Positions 2,765 to 7,643 of a DNA stretch of 64,000 nucleotides are shown here, piece by piece (the first letter of the stretch is position 1; each line of letters begins with the position of its first letter). The notes under the pieces are model-generated. The model did no database searches, was not told the DNA's origin, and saw only the letters and a list, made by a program, of their open reading frames with translations. The position numbers and the translations under genes were made by a program. Origin of the DNA: Thermoanaerobaculia bacterium (GTDB lineage Bacteria > Acidobacteriota > Thermoanaerobaculia > Multivoradales > Multivoraceae); contig OY762911.1 of NCBI GenBank assembly GCA_963666565.1, forward strand, positions 2,592,001-2,656,000, given 5' to 3'.

Positions 2765-3421
2765 TTGGCCGCTGATCCCGTCGTGGAAGAGGTTCGACGG
2801 CTTCTTCCAGAGGTGACAGTGAGTGGCGGTTCCTTTGCGCGTTCGCTGCCTCCTCTGGCTCGGACTGGCCGAGAGAATCGAGTCGAGGAACTGCGACGCG
2901 TGAAGAGAGTCGCCACCGCCTGTTGTCTCGTCGACCTCCTAAGGGGTGCCGGACTACCGGCCGTTGAACCCACTCGACGGGTCTCTGGGGAGAGGGTGTG
3001 GCCTTCGGGCTTCATGGGCAGTGTCAGCCACAAAGGCACCAAGGTCGTAGCCGTGCTCGCGCCATCGCGTGCCTTCGATGGCGTAGGAGTGGACATCGAG
3101 GCTGCCGAGCCAGGGGATCTGATGCGCGTTAGATCCCTCCGAACGGCACCCGATCTTCCGCCGGGTCTGCACCCCCGTCTTGCAGTAGCGGTCCTCTTCT
3201 CCGTCAAGGAGGCCGCCTTCAAAGCCCTTTTCCCGTTGGTGAGGGAGAGGATGACGTTCGAGGACGTCGTGGTGCGATGGTCGGCTGGCGGCGTGGACGG
3301 GGTGCTCCATGGAACTTCGGTCTTCCGTCGGGTTTCGATCGAGGTCCGCTGCTCGACGGGAGTTCCAGACTGGGTCGTCTCTTGTGCCCTAGCACAGAGG
3401 GGCATAGTAGGCTGTGTTTGA
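2765..3421 (+). CDS. 4'-phosphopantetheinyl transferase (EntD/Sfp type); start uncertain (ORF open from 2579; TTG 2765 or GTG 2783 more plausible)
   Basis: VWPSGFMGSVSH, GVGVDIE and LFSVKEAAFKALFP motifs. Confidence 0.85.
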   Translation: MAADPVVEEVRRLLPEVTVSGGSFARSLPPLARTGRENRVEELRRVKRVATACCLVDLLRGAGLPAVEPTRRVSGERVWPSGFMGSVSHKGTKVVAVLAPSRAFDGVGVDIEAAEPGDLMRVRSLRTAPDLPPGLHPRLAVAVLFSVKEAAFKALFPLVRERMTFEDVVVRWSAGGVDGVLHGTSVFRRVSIEVRCSTGVPDWVVSCALAQRGIVGCV

Positions 3422-3445
3422 AATTCGGACGCCATCGTGTAGACT
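3418..3445 (+). promoter_or_regulatory. Possible sigma70-type promoter upstream of the ACP-like gene
   Basis: TTGAAA (3418-3423) - 16 nt - TAGACT (3440-3445), 36 nt before ATG 3482. Confidence 0.35.
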
Positions 3446-3481
3446 GTGCCGAAGTCGAACGGACGATGTGGAGCGAGAGCT

Positions 3482-3787
3482 ATGGCCCAGGACCATCGCA
3501 AGGCTGAGCTAGAGCGGCGAGTACGGGAGGCGTTGGCGGAGAAACTCCGGGACTGGGACGAGCTTGTTCGGGATGGCGTTACGGGTGAGGTGGACCATGA
3601 ACACGCCGACGCTTGGGGGTCGATGCCCGTGATCGACTCAAAGGTCGTGGTCGAGCTCGTCCCGGTCTTCGAGGACGTTCTCGGTTGCGACTTCGACCTC
3701 AAGCTCATACGTGCCGGCGGTTACAACAGCGAAGATGAACTGGTCGCGGAACTGATCCCTGCGGTTCTTGAGGCAGCCGCACGGTGA
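3482..3787 (+). CDS. Acyl-carrier-protein-like small acidic protein
   Basis: 101 aa, acidic; IDSKVVVELVPVFEDVLGCDF...YNSEDELVAEL fits the ACP helix II pattern DSx..vEl...lEd.fg with a candidate Ppant serine; adjacent to a PPTase; GGAG upstream of ATG 3482. Confidence 0.65.
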   Translation: MAQDHRKAELERRVREALAEKLRDWDELVRDGVTGEVDHEHADAWGSMPVIDSKVVVELVPVFEDVLGCDFDLKLIRAGGYNSEDELVAELIPAVLEAAAR

Positions 3788-5144: not shown

Positions 5145-5770
5145 ACGTGGCTATCGAGCTGGACCTGCGGCCCGCGTTAGGTCCTGTGCGGGACCAACGC
5201 GAACTCCCGACGTGCTTGGCTTTTGCAGTGACGGCTGCACACGAACACGCCCTGAGATCAGGTGTGGAGCTCTCGCCCCGGCAGCTCCATCTTCAAGCCG
5301 CTGGAACGCAGATAGGGAAGGGTGTGTCGATTGAGTCCATTCGCGACGCTCTACTGGAACCGGGGCAGGCGCTCGAGGCCGACTGTCCCTACGATCTGGT
5401 GGAATCGGAGCCAGACTGGCTGCCTGTTCCTGGCTTGCCACTCTTTCGACGAGACAGCGAGATGTTGAGCCCGACACCGCCCGACGTGATGTCGGCGCTT
5501 GAATCAGAACATGTCCCGGTCCTGGGCATCAGCCTGCCTGCTGCGTTCCTGAGCCCTTCTGCACCGTGGCTAGTAGAGCCGGGAGACGTAGTGGGTGGGC
5601 TACATGCGGTTGCGGGTGTAGGGCTCGGCCTTCACAGCAGCGGGCGTTGCGTCCTGATCAGGAACAGTTGGGGCGCAGGCTGGGGTGACGCCGGCCATGT
5701 TTGGCTGTCCGAGCGCTTCGTCGCTCGGCATCTTCATGAGCTGATGGTGCTGTCGGACGCGCCAGGATGA
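5141..5770 (+). CDS. Papain-like C1 cysteine peptidase
   Basis: DLRP..PVRDQRELPTCLAFA (oxyanion Q, catalytic C), GLHAVAGVG (H), IRNSWGAGWGDAG (N); ATGA overlap with the upstream stop; no signal peptide. Confidence 0.9.
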   Translation: MNVAIELDLRPALGPVRDQRELPTCLAFAVTAAHEHALRSGVELSPRQLHLQAAGTQIGKGVSIESIRDALLEPGQALEADCPYDLVESEPDWLPVPGLPLFRRDSEMLSPTPPDVMSALESEHVPVLGISLPAAFLSPSAPWLVEPGDVVGGLHAVAGVGLGLHSSGRCVLIRNSWGAGWGDAGHVWLSERFVARHLHELMVLSDAPG

Positions 5771-6546
5771 CGGTGGAAGTGATCCATGCGGCTGGCCGGG
5801 TGGAGGCGTGGGTGAAGGCGGCGCGGCGACTACTCGAGAGCCAACGACTGCTGAATCTCGTACTCGACATCGCTTCCACTTACGTTCCCGGTACGGAAGC
5901 GCTGGAGCGCCGTATCGACAGCTACATGGCGTCACAAGGGAAGGAGTCCTTGCACAGCGTGGCGGAGACGATCTTCCCTTGCTCGCTGTATTGGCGGGAG
6001 GGTAGTCGGGGAGTGTTGGAACTGTACCCGAAGAACATCTACCCGGTTCTAAGGAGGAGAGAGCCCCGTCGGTGGGGTAACTATGCAGGACGTCTGCTTC
6101 GGCGGGAGACCAGCGCGGGCGACACGATCAACCCTCTGGATCAGATGCTCCGGAAGATGCGTTCGGAAGTCACCGGTTCGCGCACGAAGCGCGCGTGCTA
6201 CGAAATGGGCATCTGTCCTGCGGAGTACGAGCTGCCGCTCTACAGCGCCGCGAGAGACCGACGGCAGAGAATGGGTTTTCCGTGTTTGTCTCATCTGTCG
6301 TTCAAGGTATGGGGCAACGCCGTTCACCTGACGGCCCTCTACCGCAGTCACGACTATGGCGTGAAGGTGCCGGGCAACCTCCTCGGCCTCTCGCGGTTAC
6401 TGTTGTTTGTGGCGAACGAGACGGGGCAGCGGCCTGGTGGATTGGTCGTTCACTCGTCCTACGCCTACATTGACGGGCCGAAGACACCTCTGCGGGGTGC
6501 CTTGGATGAAATCGAGCGTTTACAGGGAGGAGAGTCGCCGTCATGA
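5767..6546 (+). CDS. Divergent thymidylate-synthase-superfamily protein
   Basis: FPCLSHLSFK (catalytic Cys), YRSHD (RSxD), VPGNL (Asn at the pyrimidine-specificity position), GGLVVHSSYAY; ATGA overlap. Confidence 0.75.
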   Translation: MTVEVIHAAGRVEAWVKAARRLLESQRLLNLVLDIASTYVPGTEALERRIDSYMASQGKESLHSVAETIFPCSLYWREGSRGVLELYPKNIYPVLRRREPRRWGNYAGRLLRRETSAGDTINPLDQMLRKMRSEVTGSRTKRACYEMGICPAEYELPLYSAARDRRQRMGFPCLSHLSFKVWGNAVHLTALYRSHDYGVKVPGNLLGLSRLLLFVANETGQRPGGLVVHSSYAYIDGPKTPLRGALDEIERLQGGESPS

Positions 6547-7643
6547 GTGATTGGTTTCTGGAGTTCGAAGAGGCGGCCGCTCGGACGGACCAGTTCAGTC
6601 AGCGGCCGAATCACGCTGCGCTTCTGGCGGCGGGGCTGCTCGGCGAGGTCGGGAGCGTGCTGGCCGAAATCAAGAAGGAAGTTCGGGAGGCCGCTGCCTA
6701 TCCGGGGCATCGAAGGCGATTGGTCGAGGAGTTGGGCGACGTCCTGTGGTACTTCACTCGGCTTGCGCGCGTGTCGGAGCCGGATCTGCTTGGGAGGATC
6801 GCTTCTCGTCTGGAGGAGGGCGGGGATGGCGACCGGGACGCGGTGACCGCTGCTCTGGCACTGGGCCGCGATGTAGGAGGGCTCTGGGCGAGGGTAGAGC
6901 ACGGCAGACGGGAAGGGATTCGCAGGGGTCTCCTTGATGTGGCTGTGCGCATAGGTAGCGTGGCCAGGCTCGCCGATGTAGGGTGGCCAGAGGCCGCCCG
7001 GTGGAATAGGGCGAAGATCGAGAGCAGGTGGCCCAGCTCACGTAAGCACGCGCCGCTGTTCGATAGTGACTTTCCCGTGTACGAGCAGTTGCCGCGGCAG
7101 CTTGAGGTGGAGTTCATTCCGATTGAGCGGGGGAAGACCGAGAGCGTACTGCTGCGGTGTCGGGGCCTCAATATGGGTGATCGGCTGACGGACAACGCGA
7201 AGGACCCGGACTCATACCGGTATCACGATGTGATTCACCTATCGTATGCGGCATTCTTGGGCTGGTCGCCTGTGATCCGGAGTCTGCTGAAGTGCAAACG
7301 GAAGAGCAATCCGGACGTCGACGAAGTGGAGGACGGTGCTAGAGCGGCGGTGGCCGAGGAGGCGGTGTCTTTCGCGGTGTTTCGGCGGGCGAAGGAGATG
7401 AGTCTCTTCAAGGGCGTCGAACGTGTGGACTTCGACCTCCTGAAGGCAGTTCGACAGCTCGTCGTGGGTTTGGAGGTGGCGGCGCTTCCGTACTGGCAGT
7501 GGGAGGAGGCGATCCTGGAGGGGTATCGTGTGTTCCGGCGGCTGACGCGGAACCGGGGCGGGGCCGTGGAGATCGACCTGAATGAGCGAAGAGTGGTGTA
7601 CCGGCGGACGGCCTCTTCGAGTGGCGGCGCTACAGGCAGTTGA
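6543..7643 (+). CDS. MazG-like nucleotide pyrophosphohydrolase with MazG_C domain
   Basis: GEVGSVLAEIKK...EELGDVLWY metal-binding motif; degenerate second repeat ending NRAKIESRW; C-terminal GDRLTDN...YRYHDVIH...LGWSP...KRKS...EDGARA..EE. Confidence 0.85.
   Translation: MSDWFLEFEEAAARTDQFSQRPNHAALLAAGLLGEVGSVLAEIKKEVREAAAYPGHRRRLVEELGDVLWYFTRLARVSEPDLLGRIASRLEEGGDGDRDAVTAALALGRDVGGLWARVEHGRREGIRRGLLDVAVRIGSVARLADVGWPEAARWNRAKIESRWPSSRKHAPLFDSDFPVYEQLPRQLEVEFIPIERGKTESVLLRCRGLNMGDRLTDNAKDPDSYRYHDVIHLSYAAFLGWSPVIRSLLKCKRKSNPDVDEVEDGARAAVAEEAVSFAVFRRAKEMSLFKGVERVDFDLLKAVRQLVVGLEVAALPYWQWEEAILEGYRVFRRLTRNRGGAVEIDLNERRVVYRRTASSSGGATGS

Follow-up and report, generated by a model that had tools for sequence, protein, structure and literature searches.

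What are seven co-oriented genes doing inside a DISARM locus, on the strand opposite to it, and do they form a system of their own? The question is raised by a 64,000-nucleotide (nt) stretch of a Thermoanaerobaculia bacterium genome (contig OY762911.1, forward-strand positions 2,592,001–2,656,000; hereafter the window). Its positions 2765–7643 encode a phosphopantetheinyl transferase (PPTase), a small carrier-like protein, an XRE-family helix-turn-helix (HTH) repressor, an M78 metallopeptidase carrying a chagasin-type I42 inhibitor domain (M78-I42), a C1 papain-like protease, a thymidylate synthase (TS)-fold enzyme (TS-like), and a MazG-MazG_C protein. An original prediction, made from the letters of the window, proposed that these genes constitute a self-contained, undescribed defense system nested inside class 1 DISARM. 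We find that the cassette is a conserved gene set and not a chance neighborhood, and that its most likely identity is an anti-phage module of a new kind. In the specific reading that we prefer, whose chances we put at about even, the genes in the window are a reduced version of an unnamed but widely distributed conflict or defense cassette: a protease/inhibitor-gated operon that attacks the pyrimidine deoxynucleoside triphosphate (dNTP) pool. The features of the cassette are as follows.

2765–3421, plus strand: Sfp/EntD-type PPTase, 218 amino acids (aa) from TTG 2765; frame open from TTG 2579
3418–3445, plus strand: promoter-like site (TTGAAA, 16-nt spacer, TAGACT) between the PPTase stop and the carrier gene
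3446–3787, plus strand: small carrier-like protein, 113 aa from GTG 3446 or 101 aa from ATG 3482
3815–4162, plus strand: XRE-family HTH repressor, 115 aa, with a GGAG-rich ribosome-binding site upstream
4149–5144, plus strand: M78-I42 fusion, 331 aa (M78 ~4278–4655, I42 ~4833–5066)
5141–5770, plus strand: C1 papain-like protease, 209 aa; frame open from 5033
5767–6546, plus strand: TS-fold enzyme, 259 aa
6543–7643, plus strand: MazG + MazG_C protein, 366 aa (MazG ~6624–6779, MazG_C ~7047–7607)

All seven genes were confirmed as plus-strand open reading frames (ORFs) opposite to the DISARM strand, and the chain of overlaps proposed for the last five was found as described: the XRE and M78-I42 genes share 14 nt (4149–4162), and ATGA couplings occur at 5141, 5767 and 6543. 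The PPTase and carrier-like genes are separated by 24–60 nt, the carrier-like and XRE genes by 27 nt, and MazG and drmMI by 40 nt. The catalytic motifs that had been read as intact are all present in the window proteins and are conserved among their relatives. Lower GC content than in the flanks, also claimed earlier, is borne out by the values of 62.6% for the cassette versus 68.8% for drmMI and 70.0% for drmD. Third-position GC is 64–75% in the cassette genes versus 88% in drmMI/drmD; the window as a whole stands at 70.2%, and the cassette lies ~7 points under its flanks.

A conserved core with alternative modules

The original prediction would have fallen had these genes failed to co-occur in other genomes. 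Two collections of loci address this point. The first, from a MazG scan (alignment of 25, one genome per species), comprises the best 80 of 579 confirmed loci; the second, from a C1 scan of metagenome contigs, comprises the best 80 of 356 confirmed loci, several of them on contigs just 1–4 kb long. Among the MazG-selected loci, 34/80, from many phyla, also encode XRE, M78-I42, C1 and TS-like homologues (tblastn). Twelve loci contain all seven genes (L001, L002, L005, L008, L013, L014, L017, L020, L022, L024, L049 and L054), and 11 of these are collinear with the window, L049 having MazG upstream. In most of the other MazG-selected cassette loci, MazG is convergent with the remaining four genes. 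The reverse test, starting from C1, gave the same association: each of the 22 best metagenome loci (C1 E ≤ 5e-14) has at least one partner, as do L112 and L123, and the remaining 56 metagenome C1 loci, in which C1 is 23–32% identical, have no cassette partner.

We defined cassette loci as those with C1 together with M78-I42 or TS-like, which yields a set of 57 and excludes one locus with C1, MazG and a kinase-like gene only (L093). Gene counts in this set are listed below; MazG is present by construction in the 34 MazG-selected members.

TS-like enzyme: 56 of 57 loci
M78-I42 fusion: 54 of 57
XRE repressor: 52 of 57
MazG: 48 of 57
HMUDK-like or UDG-like protein (see below): 48 of 57 (22 and 26)
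Carrier-like protein: 36 of 57
PPTase: 14 of 57

The conserved core is thus XRE, M78-I42, C1, the TS-fold enzyme and MazG-MazG_C, and the PPTase and carrier-like genes are accessory, the latter occurring with or without a PPTase of its own. Both accessory genes are present in the window.

Clustering of the ORFs in the 80 genome loci brought out two recurrent partners of MazG that the window does not encode beside it. One family (f7) matches HMUDK_hel, the helical domain of 5-hydroxymethyldeoxyuridine (5-hmdU) DNA kinase, at 384.7 bits. The other (f1, ~226 aa, UDG-like) has no Pfam, NCBIfam or PADLOC match; it is named uracil-DNA glycosylase (UDG) by RefSeq on two plasmids, and its profile weakly resembles family-4 UDGs (E ~0.1 for the top three PDB matches). 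This eighth gene, found in 48/57 relatives, is absent here and in L001, the closest relative (MazG 70% identical), so the description of the window cassette as self-contained does not stand. Its absence beside MazG is directly visible because only those 40 nt lie between MazG and drmMI. A search of the window's genome for HMUDK_hel found none, and control genomes were equally blank, so absence from the genome is not proved by this result. Kinship between the MazG and HMUDK-like families was considered and rejected: with an hhalign probability of 0.15%, the two are unrelated.

About half of the MazG_C loci are without the protease genes. They encode instead a ThsB-like TIR protein (f3; Pfam ThsB_TIR 76.7 bits, PADLOC ThsB 169 bits), an Nmad2 protein (207.9 bits) and a larger TIR-containing protein. 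This version has the same MazG-MazG_C family (35–58% identical, tblastn) and the same UDG-like or HMUDK-like partner as the protease version, and differs in carrying the ThsB-like TIR and Nmad2 genes in place of XRE, M78-I42, C1 and TS-like. MazG-MazG_C together with HMUDK or UDG is therefore the constant core of the wider family, in which {TS-like, C1, M78-I42, XRE} and {Nmad2, TIR} are alternative modules.

Several further arrangements were seen in these collections. The TIR/Nmad2 neighborhood occurs in many of L003–L079, for example at 5411–5905 in L064, 2825–3493 in L075 and 11690–12805 in L021. In the convergent version of the cassette, a DUF4031 gene lies directly upstream of MazG in L035, L048, L050, L053, L059, L070 and L076 (~8980–9750 in L076), and most of these same loci have a divergent HTH_3 gene; the corresponding position is taken by a 726-aa metallophosphatase in L037, L038, L041, L045, L046 and L049. 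The DUF4031, HTH_3 and metallophosphatase genes may be further accessory parts. In two metagenome loci (L085, 3126–5621; L086, 8624–11812), an HMUDK-like gene comes after XRE, M78-I42, C1 and TS-like, and no MazG was detected; in L086, a 1.4-kb stretch of no assigned identity separates the TS-like and HMUDK-like genes.

Predicted protease latch and nucleotide enzymes

The C1 protein is a clear member of its family (Pfam Peptidase_C1, 32.7 bits versus a cut-off of 20.7), and its profile aligns with cathepsins, ficins and mite allergens in the PDB across the entire mature domain (E 1.2e-22). In all 28 sequences, the catalytic residues Gln19, Cys25, His155 and Asn175 do not vary, nor does the NSWG motif with Trp177. 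Neither a signal peptide nor a propeptide was found in the C1 protein, whose profile match starts at residues 7–13. Given that the catalytic Gln is already residue 19, there is no space for either, so that the enzyme would be cytoplasmic and synthesized directly as the mature domain.

The protein encoded directly upstream carries the candidate inhibitor of this protease. Its N-terminal part matches Peptidase_M78 above cut-off (44.5 bits, residues 44–169), and residues 229–306 match Inhibitor_I42 (PF09394; 34.2 bits versus a cut-off of 27.2). The M78 active site, His83-Glu84-x-x-His87 plus Glu117, is invariant in 27 sequences, in which Gly242 and Trp245 of the chagasin loops are also invariant and Gly269 and Trp296 are kept in at least 90%. 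Fusion of the two domains is a family trait: at E ≤ 1e-10 the family comprises at least 1028 clusters (90% identity), and both PF09394 and PF06114 were found in 113 of the top 120 homologues. Canonical chagasins present loops of the NPTTG type (L2), the GxGG type (L4) and the RPW type (L6). Compared with chagasin/ICP (MEROPS I42), the window domain scores above cut-off and has a recognizable three-loop wedge, in which loop 6 keeps RPW and loop 4 is kept as Gly-Gly. The NPTTG of loop 2 is not retained, this loop being kept only as Gly242-Tyr-x-Trp245. Known chagasins are, to our knowledge, free-standing proteins, whereas the one considered here is joined to a metallopeptidase and encoded just before the cytoplasmic protease that it would target.

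A structure prediction of C1 with the I42 domain (residues 205–331) reached an ipSAE of 0.85 versus 0.02 for the best control; because chagasin-protease complexes have already been solved, this score speaks for likeness to those complexes rather than for binding by this copy. Repeated runs gave 0.84, 0.85 and 0.85 with at least 93% of contacts shared and a partner pLDDT of at least 72. In calibration, the mark used was reached by 58/80 solved complexes and 2/110 mismatched pairs. I42 loops 237–244, 261–272 and 294–297 are predicted to contact C1 residues 19–26, 150–156 and 177. The model thus predicts that the chagasin domain plugs the active site of the neighboring C1 protease.

The repressor and the M78 peptidase had been proposed to act as an XRE plus ImmA/IrrE proteolytic switch, and sequence comparison bears out a resemblance to such pairs. 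The XRE protein matches HTH_31 (51.3 bits) and HTH_3 (42 bits) in Pfam and capH in PADLOC (E 6.4e-9, profile positions 3–99 of 103), and the M78-I42 protein matches PADLOC capP (E 1.1e-15) through its peptidase part only (profile positions 9–140 of 242). As in CapH/CapP, ImmR/ImmA and DdrO/IrrE, a small XRE repressor gene is followed by a gene for an M78 zinc peptidase with HExxH and a Glu. In one 450-aa homologue (P0169), the XRE HTH domain and M78-I42 are joined in a single chain, which favors the view that repressor and peptidase work together. The pair is not, however, a canonical CapH/CapP. The C-terminal GAF domain of CapP, with its groove for single-stranded DNA (ssDNA), is absent here by Pfam, and an I42 domain stands in its place; the GAF domain has been assigned a role in ssDNA binding (10.1101/2022.04.27.489752 and a 2026 CapP preprint). 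Cleavage of CapH by CapP derepresses immune operons (10.1101/2022.04.27.489752), and capH/capP lie upstream of, and divergent from, the operon that they regulate (Lau et al., 10.1101/2022.04.27.489752). Here, in contrast, the pair is co-oriented with the downstream genes and overlaps them. The arrangement is general among the relatives: XRE shares the strand of C1 in 52/57 loci, being co-oriented in every locus that has it, and M78-I42 does so in 54/57.

The TS-like protein was assigned through its fold. Its sequence profile reached only E 0.077 against the PDB. Its AlphaFold2 (AF2) model (pLDDT 88.1) matched thymidylate synthases in Foldseek (E 2.4e-9, probability 1.0, TM ~0.5), with the best TM to the small TS-fold phage dCMP hydroxylase AfhB (9iqu; 0.57/0.66). 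Cys173 of the PC motif, Tyr192 and Asn204 are invariant in 27 sequences, and Arg193, of the phosphate-binding Arg-Ser pair, is kept in at least 90%. On this sequence and model evidence, we assign the protein as a TS-fold enzyme for a uracil-type nucleotide and not a ThyA orthologue.

MazG-MazG_C is well above the Pfam cut-offs, with 255.2 bits for MazG_C (PF18722; cut-off 29.7) and 26.5 bits for MazG (PF03819; cut-off 22). Its more than 1193 homologues are ~50% identical across phyla. Glu35, Glu42, Glu62, Glu63 and Asp66 (motif Glu62-Glu63-x-Gly65-Asp66) are invariant in 25 sequences, as are many charged residues of MazG_C. The nearest PDB match of the N-terminal domain is dCTP pyrophosphatase 1 (E 0.0036); the PDB gave no sequence match outside this domain, and the Atlas search gave none that was usable. 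DefensePredictor calls MazG_C a predicted nucleotide kinase (PMC13092281).

Of the two accessory proteins, the PPTase scores above the cut-offs of ACPS (29.6 bits versus 25) and 4PPT_N (28.1 bits versus 27) in Pfam, and its NCBIfam PptT/Npt/EntD matches fall far under theirs. Across 13 homologues, Ser86, His89, Gly108, Asp110, Glu149 and Lys153 are invariant and Glu112 is present in at least 90%, and the window protein keeps the Sfp-type motifs GxD..E and KEAxxK. Homologues align from residue 1; the start at TTG 2765 is provisional. For the carrier-like protein, ATG 3482 is a likelier start than GTG 3446, as GGAG lies 9–12 nt upstream of it. Among 17 homologues, Ser65 and Gly91-Gly92-Tyr93 are invariant and Asp64 is kept in at least 90%; in the AF2 model (pLDDT 80.3), Ser65 sits at the N-terminus of helix 65–70. 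Many acyl and peptidyl carrier protein chains were among the best Foldseek matches, but at E > 2, and VIA gave Z values of 5.4 for 4neo and 5.3 for 7auf, against an overall best of 5.7, a range that can mark a common helical arrangement. Pfam returned no PP-binding domain (PF00550) at E ≤ 0.01, its sole match being DUF5805 at 28.4 bits, just below the 28.5 cut-off. Taken together, the conserved serine and the model make a carrier protein the probable identity of this product.

Proposed mechanism and competing explanations

Domain chemistry, gene order and the single structure prediction suggest how such a cassette could work. At rest, XRE would repress the operon, and the I42 domain, lodged in the active-site cleft of C1, would keep the protease latent. 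Upon infection or DNA stress, the M78 peptidase would cleave XRE, as modeled on ImmA/ImmR, CapP/CapH and IrrE/DdrO, and expression would go up. The inhibitor would next be outnumbered, cleaved or displaced, and C1 would turn active, whether as an activator or as an effector. MazG would hydrolyze pyrimidine (deoxy)nucleoside triphosphates to monophosphates, and the TS-fold enzyme, with its invariant Cys nucleophile and uracil-specifying Asn, would modify or trap dUMP-type nucleotides at C5/C6. The supply of dTTP/dUTP to phage DNA synthesis would thus be drained or corrupted, and the kinase-like or glycosylase-like partner of the complete cassettes might then act on the resulting (hydroxymethyl)uracil in DNA.

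The same predicted effector logic, removal or corruption of dNTPs needed by phages, applies to dCTP deaminase, dGTPase and PUA-Calcineurin-HAD systems. The cassette differs from these nucleotide-depleting defenses in having no sequence relation to them (0 PADLOC matches for MazG and TS-like) and in adding a base-modifying TS-fold enzyme and the protease latch. A MazG-like phosphoesterase has been proposed as the NTP-targeting effector of a dNTP-depleting system (10.64898/2026.01.15.699771).

Is the system already known? The suggestion that no named system has this composition holds in PADLOC-DB 2.0.0, which incorporates the 145 candidates that Payne et al. found embedded and has no family for the PPTase, carrier-like, C1, TS-like or MazG proteins, nor for the HMUDK-like, UDG-like or Nmad2 partners. 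The family has nevertheless not escaped notice altogether. The protease version is unnamed in the resources searched, but MazG and MazG-C are listed among the predicted, unvalidated defense domains of DefensePredictor 2026, which cites Burroughs et al. 2015 (NAR 43:10633) for them and reports that validated systems of E. coli include TS, dNMP kinase, 5-hmdU-kinase and NMAD domains (PMC13092281). The TIR/Nmad2 version probably traces back to that 2015 work. Pfam already has curated families for MazG_C, HMUDK_hel and Nmad2. A full-text literature search found no description of the XRE-M78/I42-C1-TS-like-MazG_C set, and a prior description in Burroughs et al. 2015 or in supplements is possible.

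If the cassette is a defense system, its latch would combine an intracellular protease with its inhibitor, unlike the transcription-only switch of CapH/CapP. It would also give a reason why bacteria retain chagasin-type inhibitors, and it would show enzymes known mainly from phage DNA hypermodification deployed by the host. More than 1000 protein clusters came from each of the MazG and M78-I42 searches; since so large a family is spread over phyla and plasmids, validating one member would allow thousands of genes to be annotated. New activities useful as tools may also reside in the TS-fold, MazG_C and C1 enzymes, and the recurrent site inside DISARM offers a way to test cooperation between embedded and host systems.

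Several observations weigh against a gated attack on the pyrimidine pool. The window copy, which has neither an HMUDK-like nor a UDG-like partner, may be reduced or partly disabled. The score of the C1-I42 complex may reflect memory of the solved chagasin-protease structures, and the carrier assignment is based on weak fold scores. The M78 protein is without the GAF domain by which CapP/IrrE sense ssDNA. By sequence, the TS-like protein falls under the Pfam Thymidylat_synt cut-off (22.7 versus 24.3 bits) and far under that of NCBIfam thy_syn_methano (41 versus 174.55 bits). Asp196, at what we take to be the position of the folate-binding Asp in the RSxD motif of ThyA, lies in a column with no majority residue among the 27 homologues (consensus YRSHxY). 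A search for operators found no inverted repeats of at least 8 nt in 2580–2780, 3400–3500 or 3770–3830. The tallies of flanking genes in other genomes (111 flanking ORFs, PADLOC and Pfam, 25 commonest families) are descriptive and have no baseline. Finally, 96.7% of embedded genes are oriented like their host system (10.1101/2024.01.29.577857); the cassette, opposed to DISARM, has the minority orientation.

A bolder form of the pool-attack reading, which we regard as doubtful, would make the cassette a phage-type thymidine hypermodification toolkit that is encoded by the host and serves for suicide or poisoning. Its trigger would be an intracellular papain-like protease restrained by a chagasin domain that is joined to a sensor metallopeptidase. 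The phage pathway comprises a dUMP hydroxymethylase, a MazG-type pyrophosphatase and a 5-hmdU DNA kinase. The extended cassette resembles it in having a TS-fold enzyme, MazG and a 5-hmdU-DNA-kinase-like protein. It differs in being encoded by bacteria and plasmids, with MazG-MazG_C in 0/50,697 phage records, in having no aGPT-Pplase-type transferase, and in being placed under a repressor and a protease latch; moreover, the window copy is without the kinase. If true, this would be a new effector logic, in which the T/U nucleotide pool and DNA are corrupted conditionally, and would give both the first physiological role of bacterial chagasin-family inhibitors and the first role in immunity of a pantetheinylated carrier protein.

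An unlikely alternative is that the cassette, with the same protease latch, is directed specifically at phages in which bases derived from 5-hydroxymethyluracil (hmU) take the place of thymine, such phages being able to escape restriction-type systems. MazG would destroy 5-hydroxymethyl-dUTP or dUTP, the TS-fold protein would compete for or trap dUMP, and, where the cassette is complete, its kinase-like or UDG-like partner would attack hmU or U in phage DNA. The enzymes of the extended cassette are indeed all centered on uracil or thymine (TS fold, MazG, HMUDK_hel and UDG-like), and two MazG_C cassette types occupy the same site in DISARM. Cassette and DISARM would then complement each other in the way that BrxU and BREX do; embedded BrxU targets modified DNA, and BREX unmodified DNA (Payne et al., 10.1101/2024.01.29.577857). 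Yet DISARM adjoins just 7/57 cassette loci within the fetched flanks, the window copy has neither DNA-acting partner, and a constitutive pool sanitizer needs no repressor or protease latch.

We give little credence to a toxin-antitoxin (TA) or addiction module free of phage specificity, in which C1 would be the toxin, I42 the antitoxin and XRE the autoregulator, with the nucleotide enzymes as passengers, and which would stabilize its island or plasmid. Such a module would account for the translational coupling and predicted binding of protease and inhibitor and for the MazG homologues on 35 plasmids. XRE plus M78 pairs are, in addition, common in TA-like modules, and the window has a weak NCBIfam match to the spr1629 repressor/antitoxin and PADLOC matches to RmrA and PDC-M69. 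However, TS-like (56/57) and MazG (48/57) are conserved like the protease pair and hence do not qualify as passengers. Moreover, TIR/Nmad2 genes can take the place of the protease pair beside the MazG core, which points to a shared function centered on nucleotides.

It is very unlikely, in our view, that these genes form a small biosynthetic cluster yielding a modified pyrimidine nucleotide or a product of the peptidyl-nucleoside type. Here the TS-fold enzyme would make a C5-substituted pyrimidine nucleotide that MazG/MazG_C trim or re-phosphorylate, carrier and PPTase would deliver an acyl or aminoacyl group, and the C1 fold would serve as a transferase or the protease pair for self-protection. 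TS-like CMP hydroxymethylases do occur in nucleoside-antibiotic pathways, the TS-fold protein is structurally nearest to enzymes that modify dCMP at C5, and an intact Sfp-type PPTase adjoins a carrier-like protein with an invariant Ser. Against this, PPTase and carrier genes are present in just 14/57 and 36/57 loci, the neighborhood has no conserved adenylation, condensation, ligase or export gene, and an XRE/M78 switch is atypical of biosynthetic clusters. The cassette, furthermore, is located in defense loci and on mobile elements, and 40/40 relatives do not have it.

That XRE and M78 form a CapH/CapP-type regulator of the surrounding DISARM, the other genes being unrelated neighbors, is a remote prospect: PADLOC does match capH and capP, and CapH-CapP-like fusion proteins accompany a subset of DISARM systems (Lau et al., 10.1101/2022.04.27.489752), but XRE and M78-I42 stay with C1/TS-like in 50/57 loci showing no DISARM gene, are co-oriented with the downstream genes that they overlap and convergent with drmMI, and have I42 in place of the GAF domain.

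The DISARM setting and mobility

The genes around the cassette are as follows.

220–810, minus strand: HEC-01B (PADLOC 227.1 bits; DUF4276)
812–2017, minus strand: HEC-01A (PADLOC 528.7 bits; AAA_21 ABC-type ATPase)
2088–2591, minus strand: HTH gene, 167 aa, weak HTH matches; divergent from the PPTase gene
7683–11708, minus strand: drmMI (PADLOC DrmMI 1321.8 bits), convergent with the cassette
11750–15088, minus strand: drmD (PADLOC DrmD 1017.1 bits), convergent with the cassette

The proposed nesting in class 1 DISARM is supported by PADLOC for drmD, drmMI, drmA and drmB, and only the drmC of the phospholipase D (PLD) type was not found. The gene for DrmA starts just below window position 220 and runs upstream into the adjoining 17 kb (L082), in which PADLOC detected DrmA (894.6 bits) and DrmB (266.3 bits). 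The minus-strand order is drmD, drmMI, insert, drmA, drmB, where the insert consists of the cassette, on the opposite strand, followed by the HTH gene, HEC-01A and HEC-01B. The ORF after drmB (L082 11224–11892, minus strand) has no PADLOC match and is SprT-like by Pfam (46.6 bits); this DISARM locus may be without a PLD-type drmC or may use another partner. Beyond the SprT-like ORF lie a beta-lactamase-family gene and a gene of no assigned family, and the island's other boundary is an acyl-CoA dehydrogenase gene.

In our preferred reading, the operon is intact and was horizontally acquired and inserted, with HEC-01, between drmMI and drmA. The C1 profile matched 1/41 related genomes, the window's own, with 0/24 in the same genus and 0/16 in the same order. 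MazG homologues are carried on 35 plasmids, 18 of them conjugative, and there were no MazG-MazG_C matches among 50,697 phage records. DISARM genes flank seven of the 57 cassette loci (L001, L002, L014, L017, L022, L024 and L083), always on the opposite strand, and in L007 the TIR/Nmad2 version is embedded in DISARM at the position that the cassette holds in the window. Flanks elsewhere include transposases, TniQ, IS21, type I/IIG restriction-modification (R-M), AAA_21, dCTP-deaminase-like and metallophosphatase genes, and also housekeeping genes. DISARM, BREX and R-M loci often have defense genes embedded in them (Payne et al., 10.1101/2024.01.29.577857), and the embedding of the cassette in DISARM and its accessory distribution are compatible with a role in defense.

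The HTH gene at 2088–2591 was considered as a further cassette member and set aside; with no homologue among the 80 related genome loci (E ≤ 1e-6), it probably lies outside the cassette. The same HEC-01A/B pair occurs at the same site in L001. HEC-01 itself gave no defense in the assay reported by Payne et al. (10.1101/2024.01.29.577857).

A promoter consensus scan of 2000–8000 returned two sites versus 0.6 expected, which is weak evidence for the promoter-like site at 3418–3445. The sole terminator-like match falls within an opposite-strand gene. Elsewhere in the window, 16325–23145 holds very long overlapping frames on both strands (for example, 1581 aa and 1439 aa in different frames of the minus strand) without a PADLOC match, in a region where high GC yields spurious long frames. 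Finally, a dCTP-deaminase-like domain (PF22769) appeared in three of the 111 flanking ORFs scanned, which may be chance or may mark a further partner acting on the nucleotide pool.

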